Source: a virus. From it: DNA of 63,327 bases. The first letter of the stretch is position 1. Each line of letters opens with the position of its first letter. Position numbers and translations under genes: made by a program. Below the pieces are notes generated by a model that saw only the letters and a program-made list of their open reading frames with translations, was not told the origin of the DNA and made no database searches. The DNA is taken from the IMG/VR virus record IMGVR_UViG_3300034523_000087; one strand, given 5' to 3'. Positions 15,629 through 63,327 of this stretch are shown piece by piece.

Positions 15629-15665
15629 ACCTTATGGGTTGGTGGTTTTATTTTGAAACTGCTTC

Positions 15666-15766
15666 GATGGCCCTGCGGTTTGGTTTTAAATACCCGTAGG
15701 AGCATGAATTTCGCGGTTTTGTTTTAGATAGCCCTGCGGTTTGGTTTTAGATGGCCATGGGAGCGT
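15666..15766 (+). repeat. two tandem ~60-bp direct repeats in the divergent early control region
   Basis: GATGGCCCTGCGGTTTGGTTTTAAATACCCGTAGGAGCATG versus GATAGCCCTGCGGTTTGGTTTTAGATGGCCATGGGAGCGTG; partial copies at 15574..15590 and 15711..15729. Confidence 0.8.
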
Positions 15767-15871
15767 GGGGGCAGGTCCACCCCTCCCCTCTCAAAAACCC
15801 CACTCCCCACTTCGGATTCGTTTTCGTCTCCGGCCAAAAGAATTCTTACCCCCCTCCCCCCTATGCCTCTC

Positions 15872-18068: not shown

Positions 18069-18082
18069 TTTCCACACGTGTG

Positions 18083-18122
18083 TGAGGGGAGCGGGGAGGG
18101 CCGACCCGCCCCCTTCTCCCCT
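18083..18122 (+). terminator. long GC-rich hairpin at the left edge of R1 (weak U-tract)
   Basis: GAGGGGAGCGGGGAGGG-CCGA-CCCGCCCCCTTCTCCCCTC, then CACCCTTTCTG. Confidence 0.5.
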
Positions 18123-18244
18123 CCACCCTTTCTGTATCGATCGCTAACCTAAGTGGTTGTTTCTTGAAACCAATTAGCTTTTTCTATCGCTGTAACGATT
18201 TCGTTCCAAACAGGATGAGACTGACTCTCAACAACCGTCACGAT

Positions 18245-18281
18245 GTTACGAAATTCCGTCCACCGACGAAAATTTCGTAAC
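18245..18281. other. inverted repeat GTTACGAAATT-N15-AATTTCGTAAC
   Basis: 11-bp perfect arms built from two inverted iterons. Confidence 0.85.
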
Positions 18282-18336
18282 ACGCTCCAGCCCAGGCAGC
18301 ACTAGGGGCACAGAGCTTTCTGTTACGATGTTACGA

Positions 18337-18400
18337 TCTTTTCTTCTTTATTCCACTACAGAAAAAAATAAATAAGTAATAGATATAGTTAATAAGTACA
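18337..18400. other. AT-rich core of R1
   Basis: CTTTTCTTCTTTATTCCACTACAGAAAAAAATAAATAAGTAATAGATATAGTTAATAAGTACA in an otherwise GC-rich genome. Confidence 0.85.
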
Positions 18401-18473
18401 TAGGGGCCATATGTACATGCTATCTGTAGCGGAATATCACCAAACTTCGTAACATTCGTGACAAAACCGGCTG

Positions 18474-18700
18474 AAACCCGCGTGGCACTAAGGCTAGAGG
18501 CCTGTTACGAAATTTTTTGAGATCGTGACAATCGTGACAAAATTTCCGCCCCGATCTGCCTCAAACCCGCGTGGCACTAAGGCTCCAGGCTGTCACGAAA
18601 TTTTTTGAAGATCGTGACAAAACCTCTCCCTCACTCGGCGCAAAGCCGCGTGGCACTAAGGCTCCAGACTGTCACGAAATTTTCTATGCGTTTTCCGTCA
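18474..18700 (+). promoter_or_regulatory. three tandem ~80-89-bp units, each carrying the conserved box CCGCGTGGCACTAAGGCTCCAG..TGTYACGAAATTTT
   Basis: GTGGCAC at 18482, 18571 and 18650; units end with TGA(A)GATCGTGACAA; all point toward gene 18747. Confidence 0.6.
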
Positions 18701-18962: not shown

Positions 18963-19289
18963 ATGTTCGTCGACGCTCTGGCCTTCGGTTTCATGGCTGC
19001 CATCGGCATCTTCATTCTGTTGTGGCGTCTGCCTCGCATTCTCGTCCTGCATCTGCTGGGTATGGGTTTCCTGCTCGACACGGCGTTCACCACCCTGGTG
19101 TTCTGGATGCACTGGGGCACGGCCATCGGCATGTTCGTCGCCACGATCGGCGGCCTGTTCGGGTCCGCCGGTATCAGTCTGGCCAAAGGCGTGCTTGGCT
19201 CGATCGACTTCAAGACCAAGCAGTACAAACCCGGTTGGTTCGGTGATCGTCGTCCGCCCGAGTACAAGACCGCACCGCCGGCCAACTGA
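18963..19289 (+). CDS. polytopic membrane protein (108 aa)
   Basis: Track ORF, AGGAG RBS; three to four hydrophobic helices. Confidence 0.75.
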   Translation: MFVDALAFGFMAAIGIFILLWRLPRILVLHLLGMGFLLDTAFTTLVFWMHWGTAIGMFVATIGGLFGSAGISLAKGVLGSIDFKTKQYKPGWFGDRRPPEYKTAPPAN

Positions 19290-19292
19290 GTA

Positions 19293-19340
19293 CCCACTCA
19301 CCCACTCACCCACTCACCCACTCACCCGCTTACTCACCCT
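19293..19340. repeat. octamer tandem repeat (CCCACTCA)x4 plus two degenerate units
   Basis: Perfect units at 19293, 19301, 19309 and 19317; lies in the intergenic gap before the pentapeptide-repeat gene. Confidence 0.9.
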
Positions 19341-21622: not shown

Positions 21623-22156
21623 ATGCACGTAAAGAAACGTGATCGGATTCTTGCCAATCAGACAGCCGCCGCGCAGAAGGTCTACGCGTGCGTGCCGATT
21701 TCCGAATCATGGCCAGCGCACAAGATCATGGCGCAGCTGAAGATCGATCTCGGCTCGTCCATGAGCGTCGCCGTCGTGCGAGGATGCCTGAGAGCACTGC
21801 ACGAGTCCGGGCTGATCCGACGGCCGAGCAGCGACCTGTACATCCGTGAGCCGGTCGTTACGGCTGCCGCTCAGCCCGCTCAGCCCGCTCAGCCCGTTCA
21901 ACCTGCTCAACCCACTGAACCCGCTCCGCCTGCTCAACCCGAACAACCGAAGGAATCCAGCATGTCCGCATCGATCGTTTCCCTGCTCAGACTCGCGAAC
22001 AGTCTCTCGACCCTGGCCGTCGAGATCGAAGAACGTCTGTCCGAAGCCGCAGCCGATATCGAGAAGATGGCCAGGCAGCTGGAAACCGAAACCGCCGCGT
22101 ATCGTGAGCAGCTGGCCAAACTGAAGCAGCTGCAAACCCTGCTGAAGGATCTGTAG
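21623..22156 (+). CDS. putative winged-helix DNA-binding protein with (A/P)Q-rich linker and coiled-coil tail
   Basis: Track ORF; the N-terminal ~75 aa look wHTH-like (SVAVVRGCLRALHESGLIRR); nine 9-bp repeats encode AQPAQPAQPVQPAQPTEPAPPAQPEQP; heptad-like C-terminus. Confidence 0.7.
   Translation: MHVKKRDRILANQTAAAQKVYACVPISESWPAHKIMAQLKIDLGSSMSVAVVRGCLRALHESGLIRRPSSDLYIREPVVTAAAQPAQPAQPVQPAQPTEPAPPAQPEQPKESSMSASIVSLLRLANSLSTLAVEIEERLSEAAADIEKMARQLETETAAYREQLAKLKQLQTLLKDL
21869..21949. repeat. nine 9-bp in-frame repeats (GCTCAGCCC-like)
   Basis: Encodes the AQP/EQP linker of gene 21623..22156. Confidence 0.85.
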
Positions 22157-30433: not shown

Positions 30434-32839
30434 ATGGACATCGCTTTCCTGTCCGCACCCGTGCCTCTGACGAAAACGTACAAGCAGCTTCGCGGACGCA
30501 TCGAAAAATCGAACTATCCGAACACCTCTTCCTTCACCTCGTACACCGAGCACCCGAAACGCCTCGAAGATTTCTACGCCGTCATTGTCGAGCATGCCAA
30601 GCAAGGGCACTGCTTGCTCAAGGGGCAGCTCAACCGCGACCTCGTTGAAGAATCCCGCGCCGGCTCTACCGAGAGCAACCAGGCAACTGAATGGGTCTGC
30701 CTGGACATCGACGGCCTTGAAGTCGAATCGCCCCAGGCATTCATGGATGCCATCGGCCTGGGCAGCGTGAGCTACATCGTCCAGTACAGTTCGAGCTATG
30801 GGGTGCTGGATGACCTGCTCCGCTGCCACATCTTCTGCTTGCTGGACAAGCCGGTCGCGGCACCGTTGCTGAAGCAATGGTTGATCGATGTCAATTTCAA
30901 CACCGAACTTCTGTGCAGCCAGATGACGCTGACGCCCAGCGGTAACGGATTGCATTGGCCGCTCGACATCACTACCTGCCAGAACGACAAGCTGCTGTAC
31001 ATCGCGCCGCCGAACCTGATCGGCGTGCCTGACCCTCTAGTCGCCGACGAGCGCTACCAGCTCGTGAAGAACAAGGGCACGCACTTCAAGCTCCCGAAGC
31101 AGATCGGTACCGTGAGCGCGAACCGCTCTCGTATCGACGATAAGGTCAACGAGCTGCGCCTGGAAGCAGGCATGCCCAAGCGCAAGGCGTCGAAGTACAA
31201 CAGCATCGGCCCTGTCGAGTTCGTGTCGAACCCGGACCAATGCACCGTCACCGGGATCAAGGAAGACCGTGGCTTCGTCTACCTGAACCTGAACGGCGGC
31301 GATAGCTGGGGTTACTACCACCCGGTTGACAAGCCGGACTTCATCTACAACTTCAAAGGGGAGCCGACTTACAAGACCAAGGATCTGGTCCCGGACTATT
31401 GGCACGACCAGCAACGCAAGGTCGAAGAGGCCGAAGAGTCTGGCGAAGTCATCACGCATCTAGCGTTCCGTGATTTCAACTCGGCGAAGTATTACAACGG
31501 CTGGTACGACCCGGACACGCGCGAACTGGTACTCAAGCAGGCAGCGAGCGAAAAGCAGCTGGCTGACTACATGGCAATCCAAGGCCGGGCGCTGAGCGAC
31601 CGAATCCCTATCTGGTCCTTGGAATTCCTGCCGTCTGAGGACTGGACCCTGAACCGTGAGTACGACCCGCCGGTCATCAACACGTTCGTGCAAAGCCCGT
31701 ACCTCCAGGCGAAGCGGCCGAGCAAAGTCCCGTCCGTACCGACGTTGATCGGCAGGATCATCCACCATGCGCTTGGCAGCGACCAGGCCGTAACCGACCG
31801 GTTCTATAACTGGCTCGCCGCGGTCATGCAGAAGCGCGTTGCCATAGGCACCAGCTGGGTTCTCAGCGGTACCCAGGGCACCGGTAAGGGACTCATCTGC
31901 AACAAGATCCTGCGCCCGATCCTGGGCGACACGTACGTGCAGCAGAAACGCATGGACGAGCTGGACGAGAAGTTCAACGATTTCATGGAGCAGTGCATTT
32001 TTCTGTTCGTTGACGAAGTGCAGCTATCTGAAATGCGCAACGGCCGCGCGCTCATGCAGCGAATCAAGAACCAGATCACCGAGGAACGCATCAGCATCCG
32101 GGGTATGCACCGCGCCGGGCAGATGATGACGAACCATGTGAATTGGATCTTCTGCACGAACATGCCGGACCCGATCTACCTGACCAGCGACGATCGTCGG
32201 TTCAACGTGGCACCGTTCCAACCGAACAAGCTGCTGATCACCGCAGAAGAGATCGAAGCGATCGAAGATGAACTTCAACAGTTCTGCGACTACCTGCTAA
32301 TGCGCGAAGTCGACTACGACCTGGCGCGCGCCGTGGTAATGACCGAGCAGCGTGAGCGCTTGATCAACACCAGCAGCACCAGCATCGAACTGGCGTGCGA
32401 CGCAGTGCGCCGTGGGGATCTTCAGTTCTTCTTGGACGAGCTGCCCAGCGATAGCCAGTCGTTTGTCCTGCCCGACACGATGCTGAAGCTGACGCAGTAC
32501 AAGCGTGCGCTTCGGGAGGTCATCGAACACGCGTCTACGGGCGGCAAAGGGGTAGGCCGTGACGTACTGCACACCCTCATGCGGTACGTGCTGCCGGACT
32601 GCCCAACGTCCAGCCACAAGTTCACGTCGCTGATCAAGCACCACGGCCTGTACGTCCAATCGCTTCGCATCGGCACGCGCACCACGCGCGGTGTCGAAGT
32701 GGATTGGGTCATCCCGGAAGGTGCGCTTGAACAGCTGGACGGCGTGGCCGACAAACCGGTCAACGACGATATCTCGCCGAAGACCAAAGCAGAACTCAAG
32801 AAGCACCTCAAGGGTGTAGCAGGAGGTAAGAAAGAATGA
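30434..32839 (+). CDS. bifunctional AEP primase-polymerase / SF3 (D5- or P4-alpha-like) helicase
   Basis: N-terminal AEP motifs WVCLDIDGL and TPSGNGLHWPL; C-terminal Walker A GTQGTGKG, Walker B FLFVDEV, motif C NWIFCTN. Confidence 0.9.
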   Translation: MDIAFLSAPVPLTKTYKQLRGRIEKSNYPNTSSFTSYTEHPKRLEDFYAVIVEHAKQGHCLLKGQLNRDLVEESRAGSTESNQATEWVCLDIDGLEVESPQAFMDAIGLGSVSYIVQYSSSYGVLDDLLRCHIFCLLDKPVAAPLLKQWLIDVNFNTELLCSQMTLTPSGNGLHWPLDITTCQNDKLLYIAPPNLIGVPDPLVADERYQLVKNKGTHFKLPKQIGTVSANRSRIDDKVNELRLEAGMPKRKASKYNSIGPVEFVSNPDQCTVTGIKEDRGFVYLNLNGGDSWGYYHPVDKPDFIYNFKGEPTYKTKDLVPDYWHDQQRKVEEAEESGEVITHLAFRDFNSAKYYNGWYDPDTRELVLKQAASEKQLADYMAIQGRALSDRIPIWSLEFLPSEDWTLNREYDPPVINTFVQSPYLQAKRPSKVPSVPTLIGRIIHHALGSDQAVTDRFYNWLAAVMQKRVAIGTSWVLSGTQGTGKGLICNKILRPILGDTYVQQKRMDELDEKFNDFMEQCIFLFVDEVQLSEMRNGRALMQRIKNQITEERISIRGMHRAGQMMTNHVNWIFCTNMPDPIYLTSDDRRFNVAPFQPNKLLITAEEIEAIEDELQQFCDYLLMREVDYDLARAVVMTEQRERLINTSSTSIELACDAVRRGDLQFFLDELPSDSQSFVLPDTMLKLTQYKRALREVIEHASTGGKGVGRDVLHTLMRYVLPDCPTSSHKFTSLIKHHGLYVQSLRIGTRTTRGVEVDWVIPEGALEQLDGVADKPVNDDISPKTKAELKKHLKGVAGGKKE

Positions 32840-33667: not shown

Positions 33668-34411
33668 ATGGCTAAGGCAATCCACCTCAACAACACCACC
33701 CGCGAAAGCATCGCGACGTGCCTCATGCTGGAGGCCATAAAAGGAAAAGCGGCACCTCTGGTCGAGCGCATGCGTCTGCTCAACGATAAGTTTTGGGACG
33801 CACATAAGCAAAGGCTCGAAGCGCTCGGCCTGCCGGAAGATAAGTGGGCGATGCTCATACAGAACGGTGTGTGTACGTCCTGCATAAACGTGACGCCCAG
33901 TTACCGCAAACCCGTTGAAGGTCGCGACGATATCAACTGGAGCAGAAGGGAGTATTCGGTCTATCCGACTTCACTCTCTCCCAAGCTCAAGTCGAGGAAC
34001 GCCCTCGTGAACGAGATATTCACGTCCGAGGAATTCACGCCGCTGTTCAAGTTCGTTACGACGAACTTCATCAACTCCTACGACTACAAGCTACAGTTCG
34101 TGTCGCCTGTTTCTGTGCCTCGCATCAGCAAGATATGCAGTGTCTCTATCGAGAAAGCCGGCATTCACGACGACCTGCTGAAGCTTTGCGAGGACATCCA
34201 TCTGGTCATCCAGAGCGCCATCGATTTCCGTGTGCAGGCGCTGGACCTCATACGAGCGTGCCGTACTTCGAAGCAGCTGGAAGAACTACTGCCCGAAGCG
34301 ATGAAATTCCTGCTCCCGCCGGCACCGCGCGAACAAGCACTCGTGCCTGTAGAGCTGGCGGCCAATATCCGCAGCATGCTGAACAAAGGCGTGCCGCCGG
34401 TTATCTCCTAG
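33668..34411 (+). CDS. hypothetical protein (247 aa)
   Basis: Track ORF, AGGAG RBS; visibly lower GC than neighbours; followed by terminator. Confidence 0.75.
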   Translation: MAKAIHLNNTTRESIATCLMLEAIKGKAAPLVERMRLLNDKFWDAHKQRLEALGLPEDKWAMLIQNGVCTSCINVTPSYRKPVEGRDDINWSRREYSVYPTSLSPKLKSRNALVNEIFTSEEFTPLFKFVTTNFINSYDYKLQFVSPVSVPRISKICSVSIEKAGIHDDLLKLCEDIHLVIQSAIDFRVQALDLIRACRTSKQLEELLPEAMKFLLPPAPREQALVPVELAANIRSMLNKGVPPVIS

Positions 34412-36916: not shown

Positions 36917-38881
36917 ATGACAGTAATGGTTCCGCGCATCCACGACGGGATGAAACCGATTGAGTTTCGCCCGTTCAAGAAATTCAAGCCCCTGGTGGTC
37001 GACTTCGAAACGTACTGGGGTCCGAAGTATTCGCTCAGGACGATGTCGACCAGCGATTACGTTCGTGGGGATCAATTCAAGATTCACTGTGTCGGTGCCA
37101 AGCTCGGCAACGCGAAGACGCGTATCTTCACCGACATGGGCAAGTTCGCTGCATGGCTGGCGAAGATCCAGGCTGAGTATGAAATCGAACTGATCGGCCA
37201 CAACTTGTACTTCGACGGCTTGATCCTCAGCGAGTATTTCGGATTCGTGCCGGCGGCTTACCGCTGCACGATGTCGATGTCGAAAGGACTGTTCCGCAAC
37301 ACCATCGCGCACGGCCTTGACACCGTAGCGAAGCTGTTCGGCCTGGCTGGTAAGGTAAAGGCCCAGGCCAACGTGAACACGTTCGGCAAACGGGATCTCA
37401 CGCGGCACGAGTTGAGTGACCTCGGCGAATACTGCATCGACGATTGCGAAGACACCTACAGAATCTACCAGGCCATGCGTCCGTACATGCCGGACGATGA
37501 AATGGACATCATCCACGACACCGTACGGTGCTTCTGTGACCCGATCCTTCGCGTGAACGGGCCGATGTTGGAAGAGGCCATCGCCGAAGTAGAAGCCAAG
37601 CGCGCGATCTTGTACGAGCAAGCCATCGCGCTGGTCAATACCTTGGCCCCCGGCATGGTCAACGCGAAGCGCCCGTTCGAAACCGTGCTGCGGTCGGCGG
37701 TCGATTTCCCGAATCTGCTCGAAGCCCTCGGCGTTGAAGTGCCGATGAAGCAGAACGAGAAAGGCTTGTGGATTCCGGCCCTGGCGAAGAAGGACACCGG
37801 GTTCATCGAGCTGTGTGAAGACCCTGACCCACTCGTTCGCCTGCTGTGCGAAGCGCGCCTCCAGTTCACGTCGAACCAAACCGTGACGCGTGCGCAGCGA
37901 TTGCTTGACGCCACCGAAGATGGCGCGCTGCTGCCGGTGATGTACGGCTACTGCGGCGCGCTGTCGATGCGCTGGACGGCCGGCAACAAGATGAACCTGC
38001 AAAACCTTCAGCGCGGTTCGGCTCTTCGCCGAGCAATCGAAGCGCCGAAGGGCTGGCACATCATGACCGGTGACTCCGCGCAGATCGAAGCGCGGATCCT
38101 GGCGTACATCGCCGGGCAATGGGATCTCGTTGAATCGTTCCGCATCGGCGCGGATGTGTATTCCGAGTTCGCCATGGAGATTTACCCCGACGTTGTGGTC
38201 AGCAAAGAGAACCCGGACACAGAAACGGAACGTCACGTTGGTAAGACCTCGATCCTTGGCCTGGGTTACGGCATGGGGTTCAAGAAGTTCATCACCACCA
38301 TGGCCACCAGCTTCATCCCGGTTCTGATGGAGGTCGAAGACGCCAAGCACATCGTGAACACGTACCGCTCGAAGTACCCGATGATTCCGGCGTTGTGGGA
38401 TTACCTCAACAACATCCTGGCCGATATGGCCGCCGGCAACAGCGGGTTTATCGAGTTCCGGTGCGGCCTGCGCCTGGAGTACGAACCGGACCGTATCTGG
38501 ATGCCGAACGGTCTGTGCCTGCACTACCCCGACTTGCGTGAAGAGTTCGACGAGAACACCGGGCGTAGGACCGGATACACCTACGAAATCGTCCGCGGCA
38601 AGAACGTCAGCCGGAAGAAGATTTACGGCGGCCTGCTCACCGAAAACATCGTTCAGTGCCTGGCGCGGATCGTGGTGGGCGACCAGATGCGGCTCATGGC
38701 GAAAGCCTACCGCGTCGTGATGACGACCCACGACGAAGTGTCCATGCTGGTCAAGGGCACGAAGGCTGCACTGGCCAAGGCCACGAAGTTCATGGTCAAA
38801 ACGATGTCCACTCCACCCTGGTGGGCACCTGATCTTCCCGTAGCGACTGAAGTCAAAGACGCACCGTACTACTGCAAATAG
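36917..38881 (+). CDS. family A DNA polymerase with 3'-5' exonuclease domain
   Basis: Exo motifs VVDFET, HNLYFDGLIL, YCIDDCEDT; pol motif A DSAQIEARILAY, motif B RHVGKTSILGLGYGMG, motif C MTTHDEV. Confidence 0.95.
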   Translation: MTVMVPRIHDGMKPIEFRPFKKFKPLVVDFETYWGPKYSLRTMSTSDYVRGDQFKIHCVGAKLGNAKTRIFTDMGKFAAWLAKIQAEYEIELIGHNLYFDGLILSEYFGFVPAAYRCTMSMSKGLFRNTIAHGLDTVAKLFGLAGKVKAQANVNTFGKRDLTRHELSDLGEYCIDDCEDTYRIYQAMRPYMPDDEMDIIHDTVRCFCDPILRVNGPMLEEAIAEVEAKRAILYEQAIALVNTLAPGMVNAKRPFETVLRSAVDFPNLLEALGVEVPMKQNEKGLWIPALAKKDTGFIELCEDPDPLVRLLCEARLQFTSNQTVTRAQRLLDATEDGALLPVMYGYCGALSMRWTAGNKMNLQNLQRGSALRRAIEAPKGWHIMTGDSAQIEARILAYIAGQWDLVESFRIGADVYSEFAMEIYPDVVVSKENPDTETERHVGKTSILGLGYGMGFKKFITTMATSFIPVLMEVEDAKHIVNTYRSKYPMIPALWDYLNNILADMAAGNSGFIEFRCGLRLEYEPDRIWMPNGLCLHYPDLREEFDENTGRRTGYTYEIVRGKNVSRKKIYGGLLTENIVQCLARIVVGDQMRLMAKAYRVVMTTHDEVSMLVKGTKAALAKATKFMVKTMSTPPWWAPDLPVATEVKDAPYYCK

Positions 38882-49425: not shown

Positions 49426-49483
49426 CTTAAAAGCCGTATCGATCGCATTGATAGTCCAGAGCACAACTATCAATTGTCACGAT

Positions 49484-49520
49484 GTTACGAAATTTTCGGA
49501 ACAGGCCAAAATTTCGTAAC
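49484..49520. other. inverted repeat GTTACGAAATTTT-N11-AAAATTTCGTAAC
   Basis: 13-bp perfect arms; arms conserved with R1 while the loop sequence differs. Confidence 0.85.
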
Positions 49521-49544
49521 ACGCTGGAGCCTTAGTGCCACAAG
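49508..49544 (-). promoter_or_regulatory. copy of the conserved box on the minus strand
   Basis: Minus strand reads CTTGTGGCACTAAGGCTCCAGCGTGTTACGAAATTTT; points toward the fibre cassette. Confidence 0.55.
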
Positions 49545-49576
49545 GGTTCTAGCGATTTCTGTCACGATGTTACGAT

Positions 49577-49640
49577 CTTTACTACTTTATTCCACTACAG
49601 AAAAAATAAATAAGATATATAAAAGATATAGATACTTAGG
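49577..49640. other. AT-rich core of R2
   Basis: CTTTACTACTTTATTCCACTACAGAAAAAATAAATAAGATATATAAAAGATATAGATACTTAGG. Confidence 0.85.
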
Positions 49641-49710
49641 GCCGCCAGGGGTACAGGGTAGTATGTACGTGCTCCAGCTACGAAAAGTTTTCCCGTGACA
49701 ATCGTGACAA

Positions 49711-49734
49711 TCGTGACAGCCTAGTGCCACGCGG
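49711..49734 (-). promoter_or_regulatory. shortened copy of the conserved box
   Basis: Minus strand reads CCGCGTGGCACTAGGCTGTCACGA (lacks the CCAGNCT segment). Confidence 0.45.
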
Positions 49735-49860
49735 CCTCCAGCTGTCACGATCTGTCACGATGTTACGATGTTGGTCCCGGCGACACCCCTCTTGTTGAGA
49801 ACGATTCTCGAAATATCGATTATGGTTAAATTCTCCAGGGCGATATTTCCGCCCCGGAAC

Positions 49861-52800
49861 CTATCGATCAATCCAATCTTTCCATAGCGCATTCCCCGGT
49901 AGAGCGCCCAGGGCGGCCCCCGTCACGTCCCCGTCCAGGGTCTTCTCCCCGGCCTTGAGCATGTAGCTGAAGGTCGGCCCCAGGGTGAACGCGGGGCTTT
50001 CGATGCCATCGGTAGCGAACTGCCGCACGCCGAGCAGGCCGGCACGTTCTACGCCGCGCAGGACGATATCCCCCGCGTCCTGGCTCTTGTACCAGTCCGG
50101 CTCGTCGCCCGCTCCCTGGAGCATGGCCTTGAGGAAGTCGGCGGCGATCATGAAAGGCACGTACGCGACCAGGGTCAGCATGGGCGCGTAGTTCCCGTTG
50201 CGCAGCTCGTGAGTAGCCCGGTCGAGGATGGTCCGCTGGAAGCTGTAGGTGAACTGCTTGAGGTGCCACACGAGCATCCAGTGCGGATCGCTAGCCCACG
50301 CCGGCCGGTCAGCCGCATGCGGACGCAGCACAGCGCCGTCGACCCACCGGCCGATGGCTTCGCGAAGCAAGCGGCTTTTCTGGATAGCGTCCTTCGGGTT
50401 CATGCCCTGGTCGATGAAGTCCTGGGCGCGGAACAGCAGCCGGCCGTTCGCATCGGTCTGCACGTCCGCGGCGGTGATACCAAGCTCGTCGAGGTACCGC
50501 GTGCTGTGCTGGTTGACCCCCTCGGCATGGCGGATGATGAATTTCTCGGCGGCGACCGTTGCTGCCGAACGCATCGCAGTGTTCCACCCCTCCATCAGGT
50601 TGTACTTGAACAGCAGGTTGTTCGTTTTGCGCGCCCAGTCCGACATGTAGTTCGAGCCGTACATGTCGCCGAGCAGATCAAGCACGAACGATTCCTCGAC
50701 GGTGCCAACGTCTTCGGCGAAGCGCTGGATATCGAGTTTGTTGCCGTTGCGCCGCAGGCTCTGCGGGATGTTCCGCACACCGGCTTTGAACGCGGTCCAG
50801 GCATCGCTCACTTCCCCACCGCGCACAACGATACCCAATGGATCGATCAGGGAGCTGAAGATCGACAGCGGCAGGACAACGAGGTTCTGCCACGTGATCA
50901 GGCCGGACATTGCACCCCGCAAGTGCGGATCGATGCTGCTGCCGAGTGTGCCTTCGAGCGCCTGGATAGCCGGTGCCACGTCGCGTTCGATTTGCTCATC
51001 GGTGAGGCCGTACCGCTTGGCTTCTTGCAACTGAGCCTTCAGACGCTCACCGTTCTGACCGAAGTGCTTCGTGTACTCCCCACGTTTCGCTGCCTGGGTC
51101 ACGTACCGGGTCAGCACGCGAACGATATCCGGGTCCATGTAGGCCGCCACCGGCGCGCGGTCTTTCAACCGGATCTTCCGTTCGTTGACCGCCTCCATGT
51201 AGGGGGAGTAGCCAACGAGGTCTTCGCTCAGCGCCAGTTGACCTTCGTTGCCCACCAGGTTCTCCGCCACGGACTCGGCAACATCAGGCGTCATGTCGAC
51301 CCAGTTGCCGTTGCTATCGCGTACCTGCCCCACCGATACCAGGGCGTTGACGAAGTTGTCGAAGTCGGCGTCGATAGCCTCACGACTCCATGCTTGCGGG
51401 AAATAATCCTGCACCTGCGACACGTCTACATTCGATACCTTCATGTAGTTGAACACGCGGCGCAGCAGCGACTTGGTGTCGTCGTACTTTTGCGCCAGCG
51501 CCGGGTCACTCGGCCGGGTGTTGCTGTGCAACGCCGTCGACAGGTCAGCGAGCTGTTGCTCGTCCATGGTCTTGATGATGTTCGCCAGCTGGGTGCCGAA
51601 CAGGTTCGTCACTTCGCGGACGGTCTGGATGTACCCAGCGCGCTGGCCCTGGGTATCGCTGCGTGCGTAGAACTGGTCGGCGATCTTGCTGAGTGCGGGA
51701 TTGCCGTAGTTCTTCAACCGCCCGTGCGCGGTGCGCAGGAACTTCCCGGTCAACGTGCTTACGCGGTCAGCCACTTTGCTGCTGACAAGCGCACGCTCAG
51801 GGCCGGACAGGGATTGCATCACCACCCGGTTGACTGCGCTCGGCCGGCGTAGCTTCCCGTCCTTGAACGCCTGGAGATACAGCTCGGCCTTCTGCTGGTT
51901 GTCGAGGATCGACAGCGTTCCGCGTATCCACCCAGCGAAACGAGACAGCCACGTCTGCGGCTGTGCTTGCAGGTCAAGCATGCCGCTCGCCCACAACTCG
52001 TACATGTAGGCGATCCGCTCTTCCGGGTCGCTGAGCTGTTCCAAGGCGGCCGGTTCGCTGGCCAGCAAGGAGCGCATTTTTCCGAGCACCACCGGGTTGC
52101 TCGCCGCGCGGTCCAGCACCTTGATGAATTGGCTCTGTTGTTTCTGCCCGCGCAGCACCGAGATCAGCGCGTGCATCGACTCGTGGAACGCGGTCGACAT
52201 GGGGCTGGCGGCGTTGATCGCGACCTTGATGAACCGCTGCATGGTCGGGTTGCCGTGGATGTCCGGCCGAGTCGGGTCCAACTTCTCGGTGAACATCCCG
52301 CTGATACCCGGCAGTTTTTCGATGCTGAACATCACGTCGGCCGGTAGCACGCGGTTGATGTAGTCGGTCAAGTCCTTGGCCTGCGCAGTGCTCATGTCCG
52401 CAGCGCCCTGCGGCCTTGCGCTCTCACGCGGCGTGTCGGAGGACTGCCCCGCCTGCGAAGTCTCGCCGAGGTACTGCTGGTGGTACGCCTCTAGGGAGTC
52501 GATGTTGTCGGCGAGGTACGTTACCGACCGGCCAGCAAGACCAGCCTCGAAGAAGGCGTCGTCGGCGATGAAGGACAAGCGCCCAAGACGCAGAAGACGC
52601 TCAGTCGCGGCCGGGTCCGCCCATTGCGCCGACAGCTGCTTGTCGATAGCCGCGCCGAGGATGTCCCGCGACCGCTGTACACCCTGCCTGGTGTCGAGAC
52701 TACGGCGGGCTTCTCGGTTCGCTACAGGGTCCATCGACTCTCGGCGGTTGTGCAGGTCTTCGCGCGTGGCGCGGTCGAACGCACGAGCCAGGTCGCCGGC

Positions 52801-55800
52801 GATCTTCGCCTGCGCCGGCACGGTGATGTCCAGCACGGGCACACCGATACGCCGCGCCAGCATGACCGCCGGGGTACTGGCTCCGGCTGTGATCACCACA
52901 TCGACCGGATCTGCGCCGGACGGGCCGAGGATGCGCGCGTAGGCGCTTTTGCTGTACGGCCCGGTGTCCTGTTCCACATCCAACCGCGTACCGCTGATGG
53001 TGAACCCCCGTCGCGTGTAGGCGTTCATCAGGTTCGTGGCGTCGCGGCTGCGAAGCACCTCGCTACGGTTCAAGGCGAAAGCGACCTTCAACGGCGTACC
53101 GTTCATGGCTGCTGCCATCGGCGCGGCCCAGGCACCCGGTACGTTCGTCTGCGTGGTGTTCATCCACGACCGCTGCTGCACGCTGGCGGCGACGTTGTTC
53201 ATGTGCGCGCCGAAGTCCAGCGGGGAAGGCCCAGGCCGGCGGCGGCCTATCGGCGTCGGTTCGTTCCGTGCGGCCGCACCTTCCCGTCCGGTGGCGGCTT
53301 CGATGGTCTGCGCCTGCATACGCTCCGGGTCGAGTTCCTGCATGCCCTGCTGGGCAGCGAAATCTTCGAGGTTCCGGCGTTGCAGCTGCTCGTCGGTGCC
53401 GGTGTTGTCCACCGGAGCAGGCCGGCGGTCGAGTTGGCGCTGCCAGAAGTCGCGCACGGACGGGTCTTGGGCCTGGGCAGCGCCCTGGGCCAGCAGGCGC
53501 AGGCTTTCGCGCATGGGGCCGCGGTCGGCAACGGTCCTGGCCAGGGTGTCGATGGGGCTGCCGGGGGTGCGCAGGGAGCCTAAATCCATGGCCGGAGGCA
53601 GTGGTTCGCCGGTCAGTGTGGCGGTATTACCCTCCAGAGCCACGCCACGGGGGCTGGCAGCGCGCAGGAGACGCGCTGCGGCTTCGGTAATGGTAGCGGT
53701 GCCCCCTCGCCGCTGAAGCGCTCCCAGGAGCGTCTGGACGGCGTATTCGTCGATCAGGCGCTCAACGTCCGCCTGTCGTGCATATTGCACGGTTCGCTCC
53801 GGGTTTTCGTACGTTTGTACCAAGTCTTGGAGCGCTTCGGCGGTCGGGCTATCCAGGCCGATGGCATCACGAGGCAGACCGGCGCGCGGTTGGTCTGCTC
53901 CCTGGCGCAGGTCCGCCACGGTGACTGCTACCTCGCCGCTCCCGTCCTTGTACCGGGCCACCACGGCGGTGTCCGGTAACTGGAACTGGTAGCCGGCGTC
54001 GGCCAGGGTGCCCAGGCCATCGGATAGGGCGTCACGTAGCGCCTGGGCATCACGACGGCCGAATACCTGCGCGCCTACCAGACGGCGCAGGTCCACGGCT
54101 ACGTTCGTGCCCTCCGGCGTCGTGGCGGCGATGTAGCTACCGGCGGACGGGTTGTTCGGCTCTTGGTTCAGCCGCTCAACGGTAGAACGACGAAGCTGTC
54201 GTACACTGCGAAGGGCTTGTGCTGCACCCGTAGCGTCGGGTCGGACTGCCCGAACAAGGACCGAACTTGCCAGGGCGTCAGGCGACAGCCCAAGTTCTGC
54301 TGCAACGTCTGCGGGATCGACGCCGAGTTCGCGCAAGGCTCGCTCGGCAGGCACGCGTTCGATAGCTCCATCCGGGTTCGCTCTTCGAGCTGCTTCTTCA
54401 GCACGCTGAAGTCGTTGTGTATCGGCGCGGGCAATCGGAGCGGGAATACCGAGTCCGCCAGTTTGAATCCGGCGGTTTCCGGTGGTGTCGCCGAACCAGT
54501 TCTCGGCGGCGGACTCGACAGTTCGAGCTTGGTCGAACTCTCCACCATCGAGTCCATCGTCAAGAGCATCGGCAGATTGGGGAGCATCGGATACCTCGCT
54601 CGTGTTACGGCTTGGGGACTCACCGCGCAGGCTGGCGTCGAGTCCGTCGAGCACCTGCTGCGGGTTGGCGAAGGCACGTTCGAGGAACGGTTGTAGCTCA
54701 CCGGTGCCGGTGGTGAGTTCGACACGCAACGCATTCGACAACTGACGGAGATCCTGCGGGCGCATGGTGTCGCGGTACTCAGGGCGCAGGCTTTGGAGCA
54801 GGAACTGATCGAAATCACCGCGACGCTGCTGGTCCTGCCGGATAGCGCGCGCAGCGGCCTCGTTCGGTTCCAGGGCGTTCAGGACCGAGTACGCACGCTC
54901 GCCAAACACGTCCAGCGCGCCGTCGATGGTGTTCTCGTCAATCTGCCCGTTCCGCACGCGGTCGGCCAGCACGTCGAGGTACTGCCGAACTGCCGGATGA
55001 CTTGCTTCCTGACCCTGTAGGATGCGATCGACCTGCTCGAACCCGGCTACCGGCGCGCGGCGGCTCGCACGCACACCCTCGGGCTGCATGCGGTTCAACT
55101 CACGAAGCGCTGCATCACGTGCTTGGAAGGTATCGGACAATTGCGCCACGCGTTCCTGGGCGATGGGGTCAAGCTCCAGTTCCGTAGAGGCGAGTTCCTG
55201 CCGGGTGCTGTCGTCCAGATCCGGTCGATTCAGAAGCTCTTGGCGCTCCAGCTCCAGCTGTTCACTGCGTTGCAGGTCACGCTCAAGGCTCTGCTGGGCC
55301 TGCTGCTCGATAGGCAGGGAAGGGTCTACGGTGTCCGGCGCACGCGCGGCTCGTGCGCTGAGCCTCGACGGCATACTGGCGAGAGCAGTGGTACCTCCGC
55401 TTATGGCCGCTACGGGACCACCGCCCGCGGCACCGGCGGCGGTGTTCTCAAGGAACGACTGGCGTGCTTCCGGGTCGGTGATCGGGTTGACGCCGATCTC
55501 AGGGTTGTACAGCGACTGGGCACCGCGGCTTACGACATCCTGCGCGCCCTCGGTCAAACCCTCCAGCGCTGTCGAGGTGCCGAACTCCCTTGCGCCTCGG
55601 CCTATTGCTCCGGCCACGGTCTGCGATGCACCACCGGCAGCTTCTCGGCCGAGCCGGCCGAGTATGCGCGCTTCGGGCAGAATCTCCAGGCCGGAGCTGA
55701 CCACACCCGCCCCTGTCGACGCCAGGGCACGTTCTGCCAGCGTAGCCGTAGAGTTCGGATCGGTCCGCATGGCGTAGGAGGTTTCGCCAGCGATCGGTGC

Positions 55801-56211
55801 CAAGACAGCCGCGCCGCCAGCCAGCGGACCGCCGACAGCGGTAGCGCCCAGGGCAGCGGCACTCACCGGTGCGGATTCACCGGCGGCGTTGACGACGAAT
55901 TCCCCCAGGGTACGGGCGTCGCGGATATCCCCCAGTTGCTGCGCCCCGGCCTGCTGCGACTGCGCCTCAGCCATCTTCCGATCGGCGTAGTTGTACAGGT
56001 TCTGCGCGGTAGAAGACATCCCAGCGGATTCAGCCAGGGTGCCGGCGTAATCGGCGGACAGCGCGGCAGTCTGTGCGTTGCCCCGGCGCACAGCCGCGCC
56101 GGTCAAGCTCGTAGGGTTGTACGGGAGATTGGGGTCCGCCTGCACCGGTGACGTTTCCACGTCACCAAGGGGCCGGACGGGACGAGTTTCGTCAAAGGGC
56201 GTAGTGGCCAT
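49861..56211 (-). CDS. giant multidomain virion (ejection/polyvalent-type) protein, 2116 aa
   Basis: Single uninterrupted ORF at the end of the structural operon. Gly/Ala-rich N-terminus; HESMH (HExxH, aa 1343-1347 = nt 52171..52185); hydrophobic helices near aa 1771-1796 and 2009-2030. Confidence 0.85.
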   Translation of the reverse strand: MATTPFDETRPVRPLGDVETSPVQADPNLPYNPTSLTGAAVRRGNAQTAALSADYAGTLAESAGMSSTAQNLYNYADRKMAEAQSQQAGAQQLGDIRDARTLGEFVVNAAGESAPVSAAALGATAVGGPLAGGAAVLAPIAGETSYAMRTDPNSTATLAERALASTGAGVVSSGLEILPEARILGRLGREAAGGASQTVAGAIGRGAREFGTSTALEGLTEGAQDVVSRGAQSLYNPEIGVNPITDPEARQSFLENTAAGAAGGGPVAAISGGTTALASMPSRLSARAARAPDTVDPSLPIEQQAQQSLERDLQRSEQLELERQELLNRPDLDDSTRQELASTELELDPIAQERVAQLSDTFQARDAALRELNRMQPEGVRASRRAPVAGFEQVDRILQGQEASHPAVRQYLDVLADRVRNGQIDENTIDGALDVFGERAYSVLNALEPNEAAARAIRQDQQRRGDFDQFLLQSLRPEYRDTMRPQDLRQLSNALRVELTTGTGELQPFLERAFANPQQVLDGLDASLRGESPSRNTSEVSDAPQSADALDDGLDGGEFDQARTVESAAENWFGDTTGNRRIQTGGLGIPAPIARADTQRLQRAEEAARRANPDGAIERVPAERALRELGVDPADVAAELGLSPDALASSVLVRAVRPDATGAAQALRSVRQLRRSTVERLNQEPNNPSAGSYIAATTPEGTNVAVDLRRLVGAQVFGRRDAQALRDALSDGLGTLADAGYQFQLPDTAVVARYKDGSGEVAVTVADLRQGADQPRAGLPRDAIGLDSPTAEALQDLVQTYENPERTVQYARQADVERLIDEYAVQTLLGALQRRGGTATITEAAARLLRAASPRGVALEGNTATLTGEPLPPAMDLGSLRTPGSPIDTLARTVADRGPMRESLRLLAQGAAQAQDPSVRDFWQRQLDRRPAPVDNTGTDEQLQRRNLEDFAAQQGMQELDPERMQAQTIEAATGREGAAARNEPTPIGRRRPGPSPLDFGAHMNNVAASVQQRSWMNTTQTNVPGAWAAPMAAAMNGTPLKVAFALNRSEVLRSRDATNLMNAYTRRGFTISGTRLDVEQDTGPYSKSAYARILGPSGADPVDVVITAGASTPAVMLARRIGVPVLDITVPAQAKIAGDLARAFDRATREDLHNRRESMDPVANREARRSLDTRQGVQRSRDILGAAIDKQLSAQWADPAATERLLRLGRLSFIADDAFFEAGLAGRSVTYLADNIDSLEAYHQQYLGETSQAGQSSDTPRESARPQGAADMSTAQAKDLTDYINRVLPADVMFSIEKLPGISGMFTEKLDPTRPDIHGNPTMQRFIKVAINAASPMSTAFHESMHALISVLRGQKQQSQFIKVLDRAASNPVVLGKMRSLLASEPAALEQLSDPEERIAYMYELWASGMLDLQAQPQTWLSRFAGWIRGTLSILDNQQKAELYLQAFKDGKLRRPSAVNRVVMQSLSGPERALVSSKVADRVSTLTGKFLRTAHGRLKNYGNPALSKIADQFYARSDTQGQRAGYIQTVREVTNLFGTQLANIIKTMDEQQLADLSTALHSNTRPSDPALAQKYDDTKSLLRRVFNYMKVSNVDVSQVQDYFPQAWSREAIDADFDNFVNALVSVGQVRDSNGNWVDMTPDVAESVAENLVGNEGQLALSEDLVGYSPYMEAVNERKIRLKDRAPVAAYMDPDIVRVLTRYVTQAAKRGEYTKHFGQNGERLKAQLQEAKRYGLTDEQIERDVAPAIQALEGTLGSSIDPHLRGAMSGLITWQNLVVLPLSIFSSLIDPLGIVVRGGEVSDAWTAFKAGVRNIPQSLRRNGNKLDIQRFAEDVGTVEESFVLDLLGDMYGSNYMSDWARKTNNLLFKYNLMEGWNTAMRSAATVAAEKFIIRHAEGVNQHSTRYLDELGITAADVQTDANGRLLFRAQDFIDQGMNPKDAIQKSRLLREAIGRWVDGAVLRPHAADRPAWASDPHWMLVWHLKQFTYSFQRTILDRATHELRNGNYAPMLTLVAYVPFMIAADFLKAMLQGAGDEPDWYKSQDAGDIVLRGVERAGLLGVRQFATDGIESPAFTLGPTFSYMLKAGEKTLDGDVTGAALGALPGNALWKDWIDR

Positions 56212-58712: not shown

Positions 58713-59885
58713 TTAAAATTCTTCGCAGTATTCTATGTCGGTCCAGAATTTACCCACAACCGGCGGCTCCGGCGGGAGCAGCGGCACGCGGTAAATCTGG
58801 CCATTGTCGAACAGCACACACAAGCCATCCTGCACTTTCCCCATGAGCGGCGAGAGAATACCGGAGCTGGGGAATCCAGTGTATTCCTGGGTGAAAGTCG
58901 CACCGATAACAGTCGACGAAAGGATGCCGTTGTTCCCGAGGACGTAAATCAGGTCGTCCAGTCCTTTGACGAATGCAACCGGTTGTTGGTTTGTAGGTAC
59001 GGGCGAAGTCTGCTGCCAAGTTCCGCCGATGCGAGCGAAGTACGAGTCGAAGAAATTCGAACCATCATTGGTAATGCGCGCTGATACGATACCTACTTCA
59101 CCATCGAAGTACGCCGCGGGTGCCGGGTTCGGTTGCTGCGCATTGACGGCGATCTCGTAAGTGCTCGTGTCAATACCAAGGTAAATCTGCCCGTCGTTAG
59201 GATACGCCGGTTTGCAGATAACCAGACTATCGTAGAAATACGTGGTGGCCGGTACGATAGGATACTCAACATGCGTGAGTATGCTGCTACCAACAATACC
59301 GCCGGTAAGGAGGTTACCGCCATTGCTGGAGTTCCAAGCATTGCGCCCAGCCCAACTCAGCGCACCCTCCTTGTTGTTATAGAACGTCTGGATAGTGAAG
59401 CCTTCTTGGTTACCGGGTAGCATCTGGATCAGTTCTAGATTGACCAGATCCTGCGTACGGTAGATCGCTCTGTTCCACGGGCTGGATTGCATTTCTACCA
59501 CAAACCAGTAGTACCCCATGGTGATATCGTAGCCGGCAGTGACGAAGTTTCTGTAACCGCTCGGCATCGCAACTTCGGTCCACGACATACCAGCATCATC
59601 GGAGCAGAACAGGTAACTCACGTACTGCCCACCGGGCGTGTACCCGGAGCTGGTAAGCGTAAGATGTCCGTCAGTAAGCGACCCGTCAATTTGGGCCAAG
59701 TCGCCAGGGTTGATCGCCGGGGGCAGCCCCGTAGAGTTCCAAGTCAAACCGGCGTCGTTCGAGTACAAGACGTTCAAAGAGAACTGCGTGCGACCGACGA
59801 GAACCAACATGCGTTGGTTCCCATCGGTGACCAAGTTCGAGATGAAACCAACTCCGTCGTATACGAGTTCTGGAGTGACAGCCAT
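58713..59885 (-). CDS. Asp-box (BNR) repeat protein, putative receptor-binding or glycosidase beta-propeller
   Basis: SNDAGLTW and SDDAGMSW match S-x-D-x-G-x-T-W; visibly lower GC than neighbours. Confidence 0.75.
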   Translation of the reverse strand: MAVTPELVYDGVGFISNLVTDGNQRMLVLVGRTQFSLNVLYSNDAGLTWNSTGLPPAINPGDLAQIDGSLTDGHLTLTSSGYTPGGQYVSYLFCSDDAGMSWTEVAMPSGYRNFVTAGYDITMGYYWFVVEMQSSPWNRAIYRTQDLVNLELIQMLPGNQEGFTIQTFYNNKEGALSWAGRNAWNSSNGGNLLTGGIVGSSILTHVEYPIVPATTYFYDSLVICKPAYPNDGQIYLGIDTSTYEIAVNAQQPNPAPAAYFDGEVGIVSARITNDGSNFFDSYFARIGGTWQQTSPVPTNQQPVAFVKGLDDLIYVLGNNGILSSTVIGATFTQEYTGFPSSGILSPLMGKVQDGLCVLFDNGQIYRVPLLPPEPPVVGKFWTDIEYCEEF

Positions 59886-62793: not shown

Positions 62794-63327
62794 CAGTTCC
62801 TCCGATGGATTCTGCGGGAGGAAACCCCGACCTCCACTTCGATGTTGTCCAGATCCGCGAACGAAGCGTCTTCGACTTCCAGGCGAAGCCTCCAGTGGCG
62901 AGCAGCGACGCCTTTCGCAACACCGTCCGGCGTGCGGAACTCAGGACTTTCGCCGGCAAGGGTGTACACGCGCTCTTCGCCGTCGTCACCAGTGATACGG
63001 AAGTACACCCGTCCGTCAGTAGTGATGCCAGCGTACGCGCTGGACAGGCGTTTCGTGTTCTTGACGCCGTAGTCGTCAGCGCCGAAGTCGATCAACGCGC
63101 GCAGCATTTCCCCGTCGTCAGTCTCACCTTCGAGGCGATACAGGCCGTCGTTCTTGATCCCGAACGTGTCATTACCCACGCGGGCAAAGCCGGTGAAGCT
63201 GAAATTCTGGTAGGTGGTCAGCGCGCCGGTCAGCACGTTGACGGCGTACTGGAGCGCAGTCTCCCGCGCGGTGCTGATGTTCGAGTAGACCGCCAGCCCG
63301 TCGCGCATCATCAGTTCGATGGTGCTT
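62793..63327 (-). CDS. C-terminal part of the junction-spanning ~620-aa virion protein (same gene as 1..1455)
   Basis: Track ORF 62793..63311 begins at an internal Met; the frame stays open to 63327, and 63201..63327 duplicates 1..127. Total 1863 nt is divisible by 3. Confidence 0.8.
   Translation of the reverse strand, partial: STIELMMRDGLAVYSNISTARETALQYAVNVLTGALTTYQNFSFTGFARVGNDTFGIKNDGLYRLEGETDDGEMLRALIDFGADDYGVKNTKRLSSAYAGITTDGRVYFRITGDDGEERVYTLAGESPEFRTPDGVAKGVAARHWRLRLEVEDASFADLDNIEVEVGVSSRRIHRRN
63201..63327. repeat. terminal overlap, identical to 1..127
   Basis: Same 127-nt string as the window start; lies inside a coding region. Confidence 0.95.

Follow-up and report, generated by a model that had tools for sequence, protein, structure and literature searches.

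The 63,327-nt stretch of DNA analysed here (the window; IMG/VR record IMGVR_UViG_3300034523_000087) is the complete genome of a KPP25-like Pseudomonas aeruginosa podovirus of the genus Kochitakasuvirus, comprising 63,200 bp plus a 127-bp terminal overlap (1-127 = 63201-63327). It carries two related non-coding modules, R1 (18134-18684) and R2 (49436-49768), whose anatomy, conservation and possible role in replication are the subject of this text. The gene layout was taken from the KPP25 annotation, and most window proteins were named after the product names of the KPP25 record. A minus-strand block, running leftwards from a divergent point at ~15.5 kb and round the circle to a convergent point at ~46.1 kb, contains the terminase, portal and capsid genes, the gene for a 2116-amino-acid (aa) virion protein, R2, and then the tail-fibre genes. 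The plus-strand block starts at 15.75 kb with five small genes, which are followed by R1 and by many small genes together with the replication genes.

A first-pass annotation of this sequence had described two same-strand copies of a ~235-bp unit, almost antipodal on the circular genome. The repeat is real: blastn aligned 18237-18391 with 49476-49634 on the plus strand (78% over 160 nt, E 1.7e-31), and a comparison of R1 with the genome, together with a repeat search, returned several shorter direct and inverted R1/R2 matches as well. All the shared blocks listed previously were found in both modules; CTACAGAAAA occurs in the window solely at 18356 and 49595, and the flanking words GTATCGATCGC (18134 and 49436) and ATTTCCGCCC (18542 and 49845) are each present at these two sites alone. 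The size had to be revised, the shared unit being larger and more structured than ~235 bp, with R1 running on to 18684 through three tandem units of 79-89 nt. The spacing of 31,239 of 63,200 bp corresponds to 49.4% of the circle, and in the KPP25 annotation no real gap between genes is longer than the two that the modules occupy (676 and 564 nt, followed by one of 327 nt). They hold or overlap the two most AT-rich 80-nt windows (78% and 76%), the genome mean being 40% AT with a standard deviation of 6% and the best window outside the modules reaching 61%. A similarity limited to low-complexity AT sequence is ruled out by the octamer TGTYACGA, called the box below, which lies far above chance: it has 23 exact matches in the window against 4.5 expected, a number reached in none of 100 shuffles, and 22 of the 23 are inside the modules (12 in R1, 10 in R2). 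R1 is indeed situated between plus-strand genes and R2 between minus-strand genes, and because the shared core keeps its plus orientation at both sites, it cannot be a promoter of its neighbours only.

Each module also bears copies of a ~24-nt motif, CCGCGTGGCACTAAGGCTnCAG, which in its longest form extends over ~24-30 nt as (GCTGAAA)CCGCGTGGCACTAAGGCTnCAG. The features at the two sites are the following:

18080-18127, plus strand: GC-rich terminator-like hairpin after the ORF029 homologue (ORF, open reading frame), -16.6 kcal/mol as DNA, z -3.3, none of 200 shuffles as good; predicted to close the upstream transcription unit before R1
18134-18177, plus strand: R1 left border, the 11-mer GTATCGATCGC and then a small hairpin (z -2.2); 99% identical to KPP25
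18236-18340, plus strand: R1 left half, with box pair CGTCACGA TGTTACGA, inverted box at 18275-18282, palindrome TGTTACGAAATT-N13-AAAATTTCGTAACA, a decayed inverted motif copy and a second box pair at 18321-18336
18341-18446, no strand: R1 AT-rich core, candidate unwinding element, bracketed by the inverted repeat TTATTCCACTACAGA / TCTGTAGCGGAATA and holding the most AT-rich 80-nt window of the genome (78%)
18447-18463, minus strand: R1 inverted box pair TCGTAACA, TCGTGACA, facing the left boxes over the AT core; 100% kept in comparison with KPP25
18468-18684, plus strand: R1 three tandem 79-89-nt units, with the motif 16-mer GCGTGGCACTAAGGCT at 18480, 18569 and 18648, each followed by TGTYACGAAATTTT
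49436-49474, plus strand: R2 left border, GTATCGATCGC and then a hairpin with a 9-bp stem, ATTGATAGT...ACTATCAAT
49475-49580, plus strand: R2 left half, with box pairs at 49475-49490 and 49560-49575, inverted box at 49514-49521 and a nearly intact inverted motif (16-mer at 49528-49543, minus strand, 2 mismatches)
49581-49692, no strand: R2 AT-rich core, overlapping the second most AT-rich 80-nt window (from 49555; 76% AT)
49693-49768, no strand: R2 right half, with three inverted boxes (49693-49718), a decayed inverted motif (GCTGGAGGCCGCGTGGCACTAGGC, minus strand, 49719-49742) and three forward boxes (49743-49768)
18480-18495, 18569-18584 and 18648-18663, plus strand, and 49528-49543, minus strand: motif copies of the window

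The two modules follow a common plan. At the 5' end, GTATCGATCGC is followed by a small hairpin, then by a forward box pair and, 24-31 nt off, by an inverted box, which gives the palindrome TGTTACGAAATT...AAAATTTCGTAACA; after this come an inverted copy of the motif (almost intact in R2 but decayed in R1), another forward box pair, a ~105-nt AT-rich core with CTACAGAAAAAA and GATATAG, and finally two or three inverted boxes. Box arrays are thereby opposed across the core, in R1 at 18321/18329 (plus) and 18447/18456 (minus) around 18341-18446, and in R2 at 49560/49568 (plus) and 49693/49702/49711 (minus) around 49581-49692. The R1 units read AAAsCCGCGTGGCACTAAGGCTCCAG and then TGTYACGAAATTTT. 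In units 1 and 2 this is followed directly by TTGA(A)GA and by one or two inverted boxes, whereas the only counterpart in unit 3 is a degenerate CCGTGACC at a greater distance downstream. The three units are all oriented with the downstream genes.

Both modules are strongly constrained among relatives. Identities to KPP25, phiR18, YMC17/07/R4900a and CRPAP1904 are 91-93% for R1 and 85-86% for R2, and the 105 nt of the R1 left half show 100% identity in five of five Kochitakasuvirus genomes. In comparison with KPP25, the tandem units of R1 are 88-97% identical and the spacers between them 57-70%, while R2 is 87-93% identical (left half 90%, core 93%) against 67-69% at the third codon positions of its flanking genes. 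A 62,440-bp relative from IMG/VR, with ~65% nucleotide identity in the virion gene, keeps two modules with the identical box TGTTACGA and the same plan, one adjoining the big virion gene and the other upstream of the ORF031 homologue, ~49.6% apart. In the window genome and in this relative, the two copies within one genome are more alike than either is to its orthologue (alignment scores of 105 and 48 for within-genome pairs, 21-44 for cross-genome pairs), so that the R1/R2 pair is a case of concerted evolution, or of co-evolution with a shared binding factor. The antipodal spacing is found in six genomes (48.6-50.1%), which count as one observation and not six because they form a single syntenic lineage.

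The motif has a much wider distribution than the modules. The first-pass annotation had missed that this part of each module (GTGGCACTAAGGCT) is not confined to the phage: phiKMV-like, PB1-like and other Pseudomonas phages have it, as do plasmids. Its consensus is (GCTGrAA)sCCGCGTGGCACTArGGCTnCAG. By blastn it was found in 185 records of the phage collection, all of them Pseudomonas phages, and it is near-identical across KPP25-like, phiKMV-like, PB1-like and Persinger-like phages, small Pseudomonadaceae plasmids and metagenome contigs; the 16-mer GCGTGGCACTAAGGCT alone is present in ~20 IMG/VR contigs. Outside the phage collection the distribution is patchy, with a few Pseudomonadaceae plasmids and genomes and metagenome-assembled genomes of other taxa. 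The phiKMV-like phages have the motif at about position 750, in the non-coding region that separates the terminal repeat from the early promoters, and the PB1-like phages have it inside a 963-nt gap. Its positions in other loci are:

Motif: L070 1500-1527; L071 1505-1537; L072 1505-1532; L074 2500-2535 and 2665-2700; L076 2500-2532
Decayed copies: L009 2590-2625; L015 1300-1330 and 1480-1510; L043 upstream of 7114; L071 1354-1384

The decayed form is recurrent, keeping the tail (...CGGGGCTTTCAGC or GGCTTACAGC) and losing GTGGCACTAA, and is often a second copy across the AT core. Twenty-nine metagenome contigs with an AT content of 31% to 66% carry the motif. Its usual setting consists of short contig-specific boxes on both sides (TGTCCCAGTT, CCGGAACA, TTCTAACTT, GGAACAT, ATTACCAACAG, GTGGTGGGAT, GTGACCA or AATTACCGG), a 60-110-nt AT-rich stretch nearby and, often, a second decayed copy. 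By-eye comparison with DnaA boxes, IHF sites, parS, KorB, CIRCE, dif/cer, Ter, Chi, CRISPR repeats and tRNA 3' ends gave no convincing match.

The motif reads as a duplex sequence motif, because it is asymmetric, its arms do not covary and its hairpin is not conserved: an arm hairpin formed in three of eight instances, and the two window copies that were folded, those of units 1 and 2, did not form it. A hairpin or single-strand initiation signal was rejected on the same grounds. These results also bear on the idea that each module encodes a small non-coding RNA, which conserved non-coding stretches with local hairpins might suggest. We regard it as scarcely credible, since the R2 core has no fold signal (z +0.67), no pair of promoter and terminator was found in the modules, and Rfam gave no match at the gathering threshold for the window and none at E<=1 for three related loci. 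A known RNA was likewise rejected, ARAGORN being empty as well.

In other replicons the motif lies repeatedly beside replication genes. In three loci (L041, L045 and L056) the motif block is directly adjacent to a gene whose product has Rep3_N and Rep3_C domains; pPSEST02 has an AT stretch, 110 nt beyond a VapE primase-helicase gene, with two copies of the motif and GTGGTGGGAT boxes on its flanks; and in the P4-like satellite plasmid pHS87b the block comes after a DUF927 helicase gene. A P. mendocina plasmid has AT-rich repeats, the motif, four 22-bp iterons and the DnaA box TTATCCACA in this order, an arrangement that is a textbook oriV. In L047 the motif and iterons are located inside an ORF without Pfam match that is immediately followed by a DnaB gene, and the neighbour of the motif in L043 is a gene for a Toprim protein. 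A census of Pfam domains in 55 flanking ORFs yielded Rep3 (three times), DUF927, VapE, DnaB, Toprim_2, Rep_1, KfrA_N and ParA, and also a P2-family capsid protein, cytochrome bd oxidase II, resolvase and transposase-related domains. Neither this census nor blastp clustering of the flanking ORFs identified a protein family that always accompanies the motif. Since the flanking replication families vary and none is shared, the motif appears tied to origins and not to one kind of initiator.

Two phage groups deserve separate mention. The antisense promoter P001 of LUZ19 and phiKMV has a 20-bp phage RNA polymerase (RNAP) promoter motif, and the ~24-nt motif is found 2 nt upstream of it:

L072 1505-1552 (AM910651 ~730-780), minus strand: LUZ19 motif/P001 site, P001 sequence GgtTATGTCACacACAnnGG

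P001 is a mapped antisense phage-RNAP promoter near the left end of LUZ19/phiKMV (PMC10914365), which Putzeys et al. 2024 called puzzling; the adjacent motif suggests that this site is the origin region of phiKMV-like phages. In the PB1-like phage 14-1 (L070 1310-1530, FM897211 ~59,200-59,420), a decayed inverted and a forward motif face outwards from a ~100-nt AT stretch, with the boxes AATTACCGG and CCGGAAGTTTCCGG, within the 963-nt gap. For Pbunavirus/PB1-like phages an origin has been placed inside the DNA polymerase gene by GC skew (PMC12390725), and the literature search returned no other placement for this group. The Kochitakasuvirus, 14-1 and LUZ19 records examined carry no annotation of a replication origin.

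A candidate for the factor acting on the modules is encoded in the plus-strand block, together with a phage DNA polymerase:

30434-32839, plus strand: 801-aa primase/superfamily 3 (SF3) helicase with a winged-helix-like C-terminus, candidate trans-acting factor
36917-38881: phage PolA

The 801-aa protein matches Pfam DUF5906 (E 5e-20) and DNA primase PHROGs, and in sequence the C-terminal region of the NrS-1 primase-polymerase (PDB 6k9c, E 9e-26). Its AlphaFold model, built with 28 homologues, has a predicted local distance difference test score (pLDDT) of 84.9, and Foldseek placed the NrS-1 C-terminal region at the top (E 2e-25, TM 0.70), followed by poxvirus D5/E5, SaPI5 PriRep (7ola) and PriRep1 (7pds), the SaPIs being Staphylococcus pathogenicity islands. 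The model ends in a helix-helix-helix and beta-hairpin unit (residues 680-754) that looks like a winged helix. Phage homologues of the protein are of the M6/YuA, Xylella and Vibrio types, and not of the PB1 or phiKMV type.

Taken together, we consider it probable (roughly 60%) that R1 and R2 are two cis-acting replication regions, namely iteron-type origin modules bound by the 801-aa protein. The TGTYACGA arrays that face each other over the ~105-nt AT core would be bound by the winged-helix-like C-terminal domain of this protein, which would then melt the core, load itself and prime, and phage PolA would extend the primers. The ~24-nt motif CCGCGTGGCACTAAGGCTnCAG would be a separate component of the origin, independent of the initiator used. 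The two copies may fire as two origins half a genome apart, or may represent an origin and a helper site similar to ori and crr of P4. R1 probably also holds one or more promoters for the replication genes, because a strong terminator-like hairpin precedes it, ~28 kb of plus-strand genes follow and its units point downstream.

The first-pass annotation could match this layout to no described phage element, a statement that did not hold: SaPI origins have a published layout of opposed iterons around an AT centre (PMC9371898), and P4 is annotated with two distant cis regions of octamer iterons, ori and crr. SaPI Reps are self-loading SF3 helicases whose C-terminal winged helix reads iterons of 5-6 nt; the centre of the SaPI ori is AT-rich and has two or more iterons on either side, the two sets pointing in opposite directions (PMC9371898). 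The cores of R1 and R2 each have such an AT-rich centre with at least two opposed boxes on each side, so that short iterons in two opposed sets are common to both systems, as is an SF3 helicase, sometimes fused to a primase, as initiator or, in this phage, candidate initiator, the 801-aa protein matching SaPI5 PriRep and PriRep1 by fold. The systems differ in that the boxes have 8 nt here and 5-6 nt in SaPIs, and in that the modules are not directly downstream of the candidate initiator gene but lie 12 kb upstream and 17 kb downstream of it; moreover, there are two of them here, each with an extra conserved motif, and the closest structural match of the 801-aa protein is NrS-1 and not SaPI.

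In the P4 record, ori and crr are 4.5 kb apart and both consist of 8-bp repeats in both orientations. Here too, two distant cis regions share 8-bp iterons in both orientations, with periods of 9-11 nt and A/T-rich stretches; R1 and R2 share one iteron, and the same is true of the two modules in the relative with 65% identity. The P4 initiator, alpha, is a primase-helicase of ~780 aa, and is said to bind both ori and crr. Unlike R1 and R2, however, P4 ori and crr are not near-identical paralogues, their spacing is ~40% of the genome and not 50%, P4 lacks the GTGGCACTAAGGCT motif, and alpha has no detectable sequence similarity to the 801-aa protein.

Other systems resemble the modules in single features. 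The Rep_3 iteron plasmids have the same motif between iterons and an AT-rich region of oriV (L041, L045, L056, L076), and the motif of L047, inside an ORF upstream of a DnaB gene, recalls the lambda-type ori inside the O gene, the role of this ORF being putative. These systems differ by their 19-22-bp direct iterons, a Rep_3 or O-type initiator and the use of the host helicase, and no such initiator was seen among the window proteins scanned. T7 origins are made of phage-RNAP promoters. LUZ19/phiKMV recall this arrangement by having the motif next to P001, the antisense phage promoter near their left end; in contrast, no phage RNA polymerase was found in the window.

The features that point to origins have to be weighed against the main rival, a reading of R1 and R2 as hubs of transcription control, in which the boxes would be operators for a phage regulator, the AT core an UP-like or bending element, and the motif units phage-specific or factor-dependent promoters, from which transcription of the middle (replication) genes would start at R1 and that of the tail-fibre genes at R2. 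Although compatible with an origin function, we think this reading unlikely as the explanation of the modules. It would account for the intact motif units following the local genes (three plus at R1, one minus at R2), for the promoter that ~28 kb of downstream genes would need behind the terminator-like hairpin, for the position of the motif 2 nt upstream of the mapped phage-RNAP promoter P001 in LUZ19/phiKMV (PMC10914365), and for a module in L049 that adjoins two sigma-70-like promoters. On the other hand, no sigma-70-like promoter or terminator above shuffle expectation was detected in either R1 or R2, the 160-nt core keeps its plus orientation while the gene direction flips, and in 14-1 and phiKMV the motif runs antisense to the genes on its flanks. 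The association of the motif with Rep_3, VapE and DUF927 genes, iterons and a DnaA box would also be left unexplained.

As for the polymerase that such hubs would use, no phage enzyme was found in the window, and the 2116-aa virion protein was rejected as an RNA polymerase using the boxes, because neither Pfam nor PDB gave a match for it and its PHROGs are all 'virion structural protein'. A sigma-54 promoter (GG at -24/-25, GC at -12/-13; TGGCAC-N5-TTGC) was likewise rejected. The spacing is sigma-54-like and TGGCAC is kept, but the -12 element fails: it reads CTCC or CTAG in the window and CTGC, CTCC, CTAG, CTAC or CTTC across families, the G at -13 not being conserved. Moreover, the would-be spacer hardly varies, reading TAAGG with the exception of TAGGG in two plasmids, a constancy that a sigma-54 site does not need.

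Several observations weigh against R1 and R2 being origin modules. The motif-bearing units follow the gene direction at both sites, which promoters would explain equally well, and because the motif is turned one way or the other with respect to the AT core, depending on the replicon, it gives no simple rule of direction. GC skew marks neither R1 nor R2 and tracks gene orientation alone. Foldseek with the whole model of the 801-aa protein singled out no origin-binding domain, and 1KA8 was not among the 50 matches listed. BLASTP against P4 alpha gave a best E of 1.9, by which the 801-aa protein was rejected as an alpha homologue, the general class alone being common to both. More distant relatives (L078-L081, virion protein 32-41% identical in amino acids) lack an iteron module at the R2 position; the second copy is therefore lineage-specific and may be dispensable.

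The absence of the R2 copy from these relatives could also be taken as a sign of a non-autonomous mobile or recombination-spread cassette, inserted twice and without function for the phage. The identical 11-mer by a hairpin with which both copies begin, and the presence of the motif in unrelated replicons, which could mean horizontal spread, fit this idea. Beyond the 24-nt motif, however, the flanks are wholly different between replicons, each with its own iterons; neither terminal inverted repeats nor target duplications are visible; and both copies are strongly constrained and evolve in concert over ~35% nucleotide divergence. A cassette of this kind is therefore very unlikely. Equally improbable, in our opinion, are centromere-like or DNA-organising sites, arrays to which a partition or bridging protein would bind and so pair the two antipodal loci, or sites of packaging recognition. 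Clustered short repeats in both orientations at two dispersed loci do resemble plasmid centromeres, and in two other replicons a ParA-type gene and a KfrA_N gene adjoin the motif. Yet the phage is a virulent podovirus in which no ParA/ParB was found (~20 of the 88 proteins scanned, the rest judged by KPP25 product names), an AT core with opposed arrays on its two sides is a feature of origins, as is the link elsewhere to initiator genes, and the terminase genes lie ~5 kb from R1 and far from R2, which speaks against packaging.

Beyond the assignment of R1 and R2 as origin modules, a broader proposal can be made only tentatively, with odds that we would place somewhat below even. According to it, the ~24-nt motif would be recognised by a conserved host factor and would be an origin component, not described before, that works with any initiator; KPP25-like phages would have two origins of this kind, separated by half the genome, and the motif would also mark the origins of PB1-like and phiKMV-like therapeutic phages. 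A conserved host factor is suggested as the reader because the motif is near-invariant across different initiators and across AT contents of 31-66%. The initiator contexts comprise SF3 primase-helicases, Rep_3, VapE, DUF927, a Toprim-domain protein and an ORF by a DnaB gene, and T7-type systems are probably also among the motif-bearing replicons.

Some further features of the window were recorded. The 127-bp exact terminal duplication (1-127 / 63201-63327) is probably the overlap of a circular assembly and not a terminal repeat of the virion DNA, because its length is that of a common assembler k-mer size. Two direct 44-nt repeats (15663-15706 / 15724-15767, 82% identical) lie inside the 327-nt divergent intergenic region between the late minus-strand and early plus-strand blocks and may be paired promoters or leader elements. 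Tandem 8-nt repeats ACCCACTC (~7 copies, 19284-19339) are situated in the short gap between the ORF031 and ORF032 homologues, and tandem 9-nt repeats CCGCTCAGC (~9 copies, 21867-21947) apparently within a coding region. The 2116-aa virion structural protein (49861-56211, minus strand) has no Pfam or PDB sequence match; its PHROG matches are all 'virion structural protein', other PHROGs reaching the C-terminal third only, and the KPP25 record places the start of its gene later, which leaves a false 777-nt gap there. A protein encoded at 33668-34411 (plus strand) has a borderline match to the nucleotide-modification-associated domain Nmad5 (27.1 bits, cut-off 27), and its gene adjoins those for a PD-(D/E)XK nuclease, an SNF2 helicase and PolA, which hints at modified DNA in this phage group. 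In the structural block, KPP25 ORF002 (L083 3772-4944; window homologue 58713-59885, minus strand) bears the RefSeq name 'photosystem II D1', which looks like an annotation error.

The kind of element described here, an iteron origin for a self-loading primase-helicase, is already known. A full-text literature search returned no paper mentioning the motif or the R1/R2 modules, and nothing relevant on repeats or origins of Kochitakasuvirus. What appears to be new is the twin, concertedly evolving arrangement half a genome apart in a virulent phage, as well as the origin assignment for Kochitakasuvirus and an origin motif that crosses families. If the assignment is true, one short motif, together with local iterons, indicates where the origin lies in several Pseudomonas phage groups that are unrelated to each other, therapy phages included, and likewise in small plasmids and satellites, which makes origin mapping directly testable and would help the design of phage-based vectors and engineered phages. 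It would also pose the question of which factor reads a 24-nt sequence that survives so wide a change in base composition, and the twin layout half a genome apart would be a simple system in which to study whether the advantage to a virulent phage lies in two origins or in an origin with an enhancer.

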